IMG/VR virus record: IMGVR_UViG_2693429582_000015
From: a virus
Lineage: Duplodnaviria; Heunggongvirae; Uroviricota; Caudoviricetes
Direction: 5' to 3' (one strand)
Length of the DNA: 4,103 bases
How positions within the stretch are numbered: position 1 is the first letter of the stretch; each line of letters opens with the position of its first letter. Both the position numbers and the translations under genes were made by a program. Below are positions 3,282-3,311 of this stretch, in pieces. The notes under the pieces were generated by a model. That model saw only the letters and a program-made list of their open reading frames with translations, made no database searches and was not told the origin of the DNA.

Positions 3282-3311
3282 AAAAAAGACCACCGGCACA
3301 CACCGATGGTC
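3282..3311 (-). terminator. Intrinsic terminator between the 81-aa ORF and the holin gene (minus-strand orientation)
   Basis: Minus-strand transcript reads GACCAUCGG-UGUGUG-CCGGUGGUC followed by UUUUUUAUUGUUG: 9-bp GC-rich stem (one G-U wobble), 6-nt loop, U6 tail. Stem arms 3288-3296 and 3303-3311, A-run 3282-3287 on the plus strand. Confidence 0.7.

Follow-up and report, generated by a model that had tools for sequence, protein, structure and literature searches.

The window (the whole stretch of 4,103 nucleotides analysed here) carries on its minus strand, directly ahead of a phage-21-type pinholin/SAR-endolysin cassette, a hairpin with a U-run that by structure is a Rho-independent terminator. 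We consider it probable that this is an ordinary intrinsic terminator, insulating the lysis cassette from transcription by polymerase that is not Q-modified, within a Q-dependent lambdoid late operon. In the context of a near-identical prophage, the hairpin is the last and the strongest of four same-direction terminators ahead of the holin gene, and it is an internal terminator of the late operon rather than the site of its regulation. The genes of the window all lie on the minus strand and are listed below, together with the leader elements, in the order of transcription; the pinholin gene is the first one downstream of the terminator.

3925..4101, minus strand: 3' end of the gene for a NanS-p-type sialate O-acetylesterase (from the RefSeq annotation of the near-identical prophage)
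3610..3789, minus strand: DUF1378 gene, encoding a 59-aa membrane protein (PF07125, E = 8e-38)
3324..3569, minus strand: DUF826 gene, encoding an 81-aa acidic protein (PF05696, E = 3e-40; also in the RefSeq annotation of the near-identical prophage), with its stop codon TAA at 3326..3324
3247..3272, minus strand: conserved holin leader, almost invariant among the hairpin alleles
3271..3266 paired with 3257..3252, minus strand: 6-bp stem of the leader, GCUUCC / GGAGGC, including the Shine-Dalgarno sequence GGGAGG (3258..3253)
3031..3246, minus strand: class II (phage-21 S type) pinholin gene with the dual starts MNQM, ATG at 3246 (PF04971, E = 9e-33)
2493..3026, minus strand: endolysin gene, separated from the holin gene by 4 nt; its product is a phage lysozyme whose N-terminal segment is hydrophobic
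2218..1649, minus strand: gene for an Ant-like protein
1492..1025, minus strand: Rz gene with embedded Rz1
561..247, minus strand: PerC-family gene

The leader stem, which lies over the holin Shine-Dalgarno sequence GGGAGG and sits right before the dual start MNQM, folds no better than shuffled sequence (3252-3271, z = -0.7).

The first-pass annotation had described a 9-bp stem, a loop and a U6 run at 3282-3311, and on verification against the sequence these coordinates proved exact. Its spacings are likewise right: the DUF826 stop lies 13 nt 5' of the core stem, and the pinholin ATG 35 nt 3'. The parts of the element, as obtained from the sequence check, from RNAfold and from a consensus scan, are the following.

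3311..3303, minus strand: 5' arm of the core stem, GACCAUCGG (sequence check)
3302..3297, minus strand: hairpin loop (sequence check)
3296..3288, minus strand: 3' arm of the core stem, CCGGUGGUC (sequence check)
3288..3311, minus strand: terminator stem-loop, with a 9-bp core stem that contains one G-U pair (RNAfold and consensus scan)
3313..3286, minus strand: extended helix of 12 pairs with a 4-nt loop (RNAfold; extendable to 12-13 bp)
3287..3282, minus strand: U6 run, followed by AUUGUUGUG
3273..3287, minus strand: U-rich tail, UUUUUUAUUGUUGUG (tail term 5.1)

Folded with RNAfold, the 30-nt hairpin reaches -18.6 kcal/mol (z = -4.9), a value equalled by none of 200 dinucleotide shuffles, and in its 61-nt context z amounts to -4.4. 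The consensus scan places it at the top of the 9 terminator-like sites in the window, shuffles giving 3.8 +/- 2.0 such sites. RNA of the plus strand lacks the U-tail and at the same site attains no more than -11.2 kcal/mol, since C-A mismatches there take the place of the G-U pairs; as U-tail and strong fold occur on the coding strand only, the signal is one-directional and co-oriented with the genes. The site thus combines what is expected of an intrinsic terminator: a GC-rich stem, a loop of 4-6 nt, a U-tract on one strand, and a non-coding location downstream of a co-directional gene. Termination at the hairpin in vivo is a prediction.

Over positions 126-4103, nearly its whole length, the window matches a prophage of E. 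coli O26 RM10386 (L002) at 99.975% identity, and the context upstream of the window was taken from that record. Window 1-125 has no match in this prophage; on the downstream side of the PerC-family gene there is thus a mosaic junction. Stx2a-converting phages are ~97-98% identical across 78% of the window length. The order on the coding strand of the O26 prophage is RusA, Q-like, three tRNAs, TerB, DUF3927, esterase, DUF1378, DUF826, hairpin, and holin; a gene for an AraC-type regulator is also situated between the Q-like gene and the tRNAs. The Q-like gene follows right after RusA, 5.1 kb upstream of the holin gene, and its 176-aa product matches DUF1133 / Phage_antitermQ (PF06576/PF06530) as well as the PHROG 'anti-termination protein Q-like'. 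Five same-direction terminator-like sites are found in this record between the Q-like gene and the spanin genes; their d-scores, like all those given below, are of the d'Aubenton-Carafa type, were calculated with present-day energy parameters, and serve for ranking only.

L002 11866-11883, minus strand: terminator following an ORF of 65 aa close to the Q-like gene (d-score 18)
L002 10710-10729, minus strand: terminator after the three tRNA genes (d-score 36)
L002 9757-9775, minus strand: terminator after TerB-DUF3927 (d-score 26)
L002 7115, minus strand: the hairpin of the window (d-score 39, the highest of the five)
L002 6186, minus strand: terminator-like site after the endolysin gene (d-score -1)

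In the window itself, a second, weakly scoring same-direction terminator-like hairpin is located within the lysis cassette, between the endolysin and Ant-like genes and upstream of the spanin genes (GGCACCGUAAUGGUGCC UUUGUCAUUU, 2363-2385, minus strand, d about -1).

This series bears on two earlier proposals. Because of the hairpin, holin expression had been predicted to depend strictly on antitermination. The hairpin is, however, not the switch that makes the holin Q-dependent: three other same-direction terminators precede it, and it is one barrier among several arranged in series. The upstream small genes had further been described as a separately terminated unit. A block does indeed end at the hairpin, but it is larger than this pair of genes: an esterase-DUF1378-DUF826 block is enclosed by the terminators at L002 9775 and 7115, and no same-direction terminator was detected between the esterase gene and DUF1378 in our scan of the window and L002, so that the esterase gene probably belongs to the unit ending at the hairpin. 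The identification of the hairpin with tR' itself was rejected on position, the Q-like gene being 5.1 kb away with three terminators between.

In Stx phages, the PR' promoter is constitutively active and its transcription is stopped at tR' in lysogeny, until Q brings about transcription of the toxin and lysis genes (PMC7547250). The nanS-p genes show basal expression that increases by 1-2.4 logs upon induction with mitomycin C, and an analysis of the region from Q to S notes the DUF826 and DUF1378 ORFs, and no terminator before S (PMC10462455). Under the insulation reading, RNA polymerase that had not been Q-modified at the late promoter would release its transcript at the hairpin. Such polymerase might come from leak-through at the upstream terminators or from a promoter within the accessory genes (TerB/DUF3927, NanS-p esterase, DUF1378, DUF826), and in the lysogen it would be kept from the lethal pinholin, endolysin, and spanin genes. 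After induction, Q-modified polymerase would pass the hairpin like the other terminators, and the lysis and virion genes would be transcribed; that such polymerase reads through this particular hairpin is what we infer from the layout. A crude scan revealed, at its threshold, no same-strand sigma-70-like promoter either between L002 9775 and 7115 or in the window; to that extent, the upstream unit offers no source of its own for unmodified transcription that would need blocking.

The arrangement extends well beyond this prophage. Of 63 distinct phage-21-type holin loci from many Enterobacterales, 34 (54%) show a terminator of d > 0 in the 175 nt ahead of the holin gene; in dinucleotide shuffles the proportion is 0.6%. 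The preferred distances between terminator and holin are 41-56 nt and 105-120 nt, and the terminators of the distant loci are unrelated in sequence to the hairpin of the window. Some of these terminators, in relatives free of inserted genes such as L018, lie within ~190 nt of the Q gene (PF03589) and are presumably tR'; others come after an inserted gene, as in L015 (a DNA methylase) and L033 (a gene of unknown function), where 43-44 nt separate terminator and holin gene. 'Terminator, then holin' is evidently a recurrent layout of such late operons. A terminator about 105-120 nt before the holin gene occurs in L018, L020, L070, L076, L043, L035, L074, and L065-L069; this class of ~110 nt is found in many loci of the Enterobacter, Citrobacter, and Kluyvera type, and its terminator is followed by a conserved element that starts with UUCAGGCYCCGGGAA and ends with ...CCCGAGRGCCUGA.

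For a comparison of the hairpin within its own lineage, 154 loci encoding relatives of the holin were retrieved and the sequence upstream of each start codon was examined. The E. coli group that shares the holin leader of the window comprises 93 loci with 25 distinct upstream sequences of 75 nt, which fall into six hairpin classes (d-scores again for ranking only).

Allele A: carried by the window (d-score 39)
Allele B: the commonest class (d-score 30-37)
Allele C: ACUUGUUG or UCUUGUUG in place of the U-tract, 16 of the 93 loci (d-score -13 to -29)
Allele D: Sakai Sp5 (d-score 6-7); in strain Sakai the U-tract of its form D1 is at NC_002695.2 1272749-1272753
Allele E: d-score 20-30
Allele F: stem as in A, with the tail UUUAUAUU (d-score 10)

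Alleles A, B, and E are thus strong, D and F weak, and C is devoid of a U-tract. The allele-C loci (L099, L113, L131, L108, L112, L148, and others, at about 1430-1475) have a GC-richer stem of the form GGGG...CCCC. In alleles A, C, D, E, and F the DUF826 stop is constantly 9-10 nt from the extended stem. The allele-B loci have the esterase gene directly before the hairpin, without DUF1378 and DUF826: where both small genes are absent, a related stem-loop nonetheless holds the same position, with the same U-tract, leader, and holin. When one such locus is aligned locally with the window, homology sets in only at 3294 and extends over the 3' arm, the U-tract, the leader, and the holin gene. It is thus with the lysis cassette that 3' arm, U-tract, and leader move. 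Loop and 5' arm vary with the upstream block, yet remain complementary to the 3' arm.

When 11 distinct alleles are aligned over the hairpin alone, standard pairs make up 96% of the cells, and compensatory changes are seen in four of the nine pairs (G-C/A-U twice, C-G/G-C once, and A-U/G-C once). The covariation score is 0.44, compared to 0.28 +/- 0.03 for shuffles (none of 500 reaches 0.44) and at most 0.21 with slid partners. With controls so much lower, the helix is under selection. These results weigh heavily on the notion that the inverted repeat arose by chance, or is the decayed relic of a recombination junction, and has no present function. The breakpoint of inter-allele homology inside the hairpin and the weak or absent U-tract of some alleles would suit such an origin; the shuffles that never fold equally well, the compensated pairs, and the unrelated terminators found at the corresponding spot of distant holin loci (54% versus 0.6% of shuffles) all speak against it, and we hold it to be extremely improbable.

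The same allele series qualifies the proposed insulation of the lysis genes. The terminator on the coding strand, its compensated stem, and the Q-family gene upstream are in favor of it, but in 16 of the 93 loci, those with allele C, the hairpin stands there without a U-tract, so that insulation is not retained universally. Because allele C has no usable U-tract and the terminators of alleles D and F are weak (d = 6-10), selection seems to act more on the helix than on the terminator as a whole. This makes room for a different function, in which the hairpin is mainly an element of RNA processing or stability and termination is secondary or allele-specific: the late RNA would be cut beside the hairpin, which would shield the esterase-DUF1378-DUF826 message at its 3' end or set the 5' end of the lysis message, so that the half-lives of the two messages would be uncoupled and the timing of lysis tuned. 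We regard this as unlikely, though as the main rival of termination. The compensated helix retained by allele C even where the U-tract is missing is what it has in its favor on the side of sequence, whereas most alleles, that of the window included, possess a textbook U-tract, and the stem is too short for RNase III.

RNA data from across the site were available from two kinds of source. Logan contigs of 5-14 kb span the hairpin in eight runs (seven labelled as RNA, one of unrecorded type), and a single contig of 13.8 kb crosses it in two runs; such contigs represent either read-through RNA or contaminating DNA, and their unitig depth gives no read-through ratio. As RNA, contigs across the hairpin fit with what is expected of antiterminated late transcription. 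Among raw runs bearing the same species label, no reads fell on 3200-4000 in four Illumina runs, four Nanopore runs, and three of four further runs. Stranded reads came from study P8 (samples X17, X20, and X24), on a strain with allele D1 and several prophages, and were placed on the IMG/VR locus L144, which likewise carries D1. Here, under culture conditions that are not recorded, the depth of sense reads ranges over 67-88 before the D1 hairpin and over 64-80 after it, and the ratio between the flanks is similar, about 0.7-1.0, in three samples that differ 13-fold in absolute level. Late RNA of uninduced cultures stems from spontaneously induced cells. The equal depth on both flanks fits with read-through in such cells, and equally with a weak or irrelevant terminator; it is no clean refutation of insulation, because the conditions are unrecorded, D1 is weak, and leader and holin are common to paralogous prophages.

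The profile over the L144 hairpin itself (1428-1467) is more complex. The depth drops sharply just 5' of the stem, amounts to 24-27 over the stem, and recovers sharply at 1460-1467. At 1429, 6 nt before the stem, molecules end in 24 of ~67 cases (X24) and in 9 of 23 (X20), the 'begin' of the molecules in this pile-up being, in the depth steps, their right-hand end; few reads at the hairpin are partly aligned. A promoter was rejected as the cause of the pile-up at 1429, as no -10 or -35 element is visible and the 'begin' is a right-hand end. A near-zero depth over an allele-B hairpin (L140) was dropped from consideration as a threshold artefact, since most reads are 95-99% alike and the B copy of the strain differs. 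The dip in L144 may have arisen from reads of other prophage copies that are cut at the borders of homology, from a library bias against the hairpin, or from real cleavage at both flanks. The sharp read edges on either side, the ends at 1429, and the equal flanks in the D1 strain are what a processing element would predict. Against this, the edges coincide with the borders at which the alleles of paralogous prophages diverge, and reads from paralogues or library bias can give rise to such edges; moreover, RNase E sites are usually AU-rich, and the sequence at 1429 is not. A bolder version, that the helix is a processing/stability module joining an exchangeable accessory block to the lysis cassette, with the late transcript cut on both flanks, would account at once for the compensated helix without U-tract, the breakpoint within the hairpin, and the sharp read edges; we offer it as speculation of low probability. 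If it were true, cutting at two flanks would give the lysis message its own 5' end, half-life, and timing, whatever block lies upstream.

Stem and U-run together are also the typical Hfq-binding module, which raises the question of whether the terminator is instead the 3' end of an Hfq-binding sRNA, derived from the 3' region of DUF826, and mainly a scaffold of the StxS kind. The late regions of lambdoid prophages in pathogenic E. coli abound in sRNA genes (PMC4104026; PMC7547250), and the opposite strand carries one that resembles PasA/Esr41 at a distance of 500 nt. The data at the site itself, however, make this very unlikely: no Rfam family (AsxR, AgvB, Esr41, STnc100, and others) matches 3272-3330 at E <= 1; the supplement of PMC4104026 lists no Hfq-bound sRNA at the equivalent Sakai coordinates, in a screen that omitted sites up to 100 nt from genes; the stretch preceding the hairpin codes for protein and differs among alleles; and the reads of the D1 strain display no excess across the last 80 nt of DUF826.

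The neighbouring sRNA gene (3808-3923, plus strand) is convergent to the esterase gene. Its match to Esr41 (3847-3923) is weak, at 29.5 bits, below the Rfam gathering score of 102, and the gene ends in a strong terminator, CCGCCAGCG...CGCUGGCGG U8. The strong terminator found between the esterase gene and DUF1378 is this one: it points the opposite way and belongs to the Esr41/PasA-like gene, not to the esterase unit. The gene sits at the position reported for PasA / EcOnc51-52 in prophages of EPEC and EHEC, and PasA/PasC sRNAs have been described between esterase and holin genes, convergent to both (PMC8550237 table S6; 2026 preprint of Zhu, Shabalina, and Storz). The hairpin was considered as the end of PasA/PasC and rejected, PasA being convergent ('> < >' in PMC8550237 table S6) and corresponding to the plus-strand Esr41-like gene. 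It was rejected as the end of AsxR/AgvB too, AsxR being located 3' of stx2B.

Having weighed these alternatives, we retain an intrinsic terminator that insulates the lysis genes as the probable function, a mechanism that is in essence the textbook one. The records of 933W, VT2phi_272, Sakai, and RM10386 carry no annotated regulatory feature at the site, and our literature search, which did not reach older Stx-phage papers (Plunkett 1999, Wagner 2001), found no description of the terminator. The element is of a known kind, unannotated in the records viewed, and conceptually nothing new. It exemplifies how lambdoid prophages silence lethal lysis genes while carrying accessory genes that are perhaps active during lysogeny; the operon can accommodate several terminators in succession, since only Q-modified polymerase must cross them. 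In the Stx phages of pathogenic E. coli the same module stands between the toxin/esterase region and the lysis genes, and the tightness of this last barrier could affect expression of the upstream genes without lysis. The allele series, running from strong to devoid of a U-tract, forms a natural panel for measuring that tightness.

Three known systems invite comparison. An sdi-type stem-loop sets the ratio of the two start codons in the lambda S and S21 holins. In common with sdi, the hairpin forms in the leader RNA of a holin with dual starts; unlike sdi, it ends 35 nt before the first ATG, clear of the Shine-Dalgarno sequence, GGGAGG being covered by the separate stem at 3271..3252. A second parallel is with the terminators that bound morons, a term reportedly defined by Juhala and Hendrix. 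Morons are independently expressed inserts in lambdoid late operons (as quoted in PMC2629481), and the hairpin similarly follows what appears to be an accessory insert (esterase, DUF1378, DUF826) separating Q from the lysis genes. It differs in that no promoter of the block was detected and in that it is the holin, not DUF826, with which 3' arm, U-tract, and leader are passed on. The closest standard of reference is tR' of phages lambda, 21, 82, and 933W / Sakai Sp5, which follows PR' and qut and whose short transcript in Stx phages is StxS. Unlike tR', the hairpin is ~5.1 kb from the Q-like gene, behind three terminators, six protein-coding genes, and three tRNA genes, and it does not adjoin a promoter or a Q-binding/pause element, for which reason it is not the decision site. 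Like tR', it is an intrinsic terminator of the late operon, upstream of the lysis genes, and is expected to halt unmodified polymerase and to be overridden by the Q-modified form.
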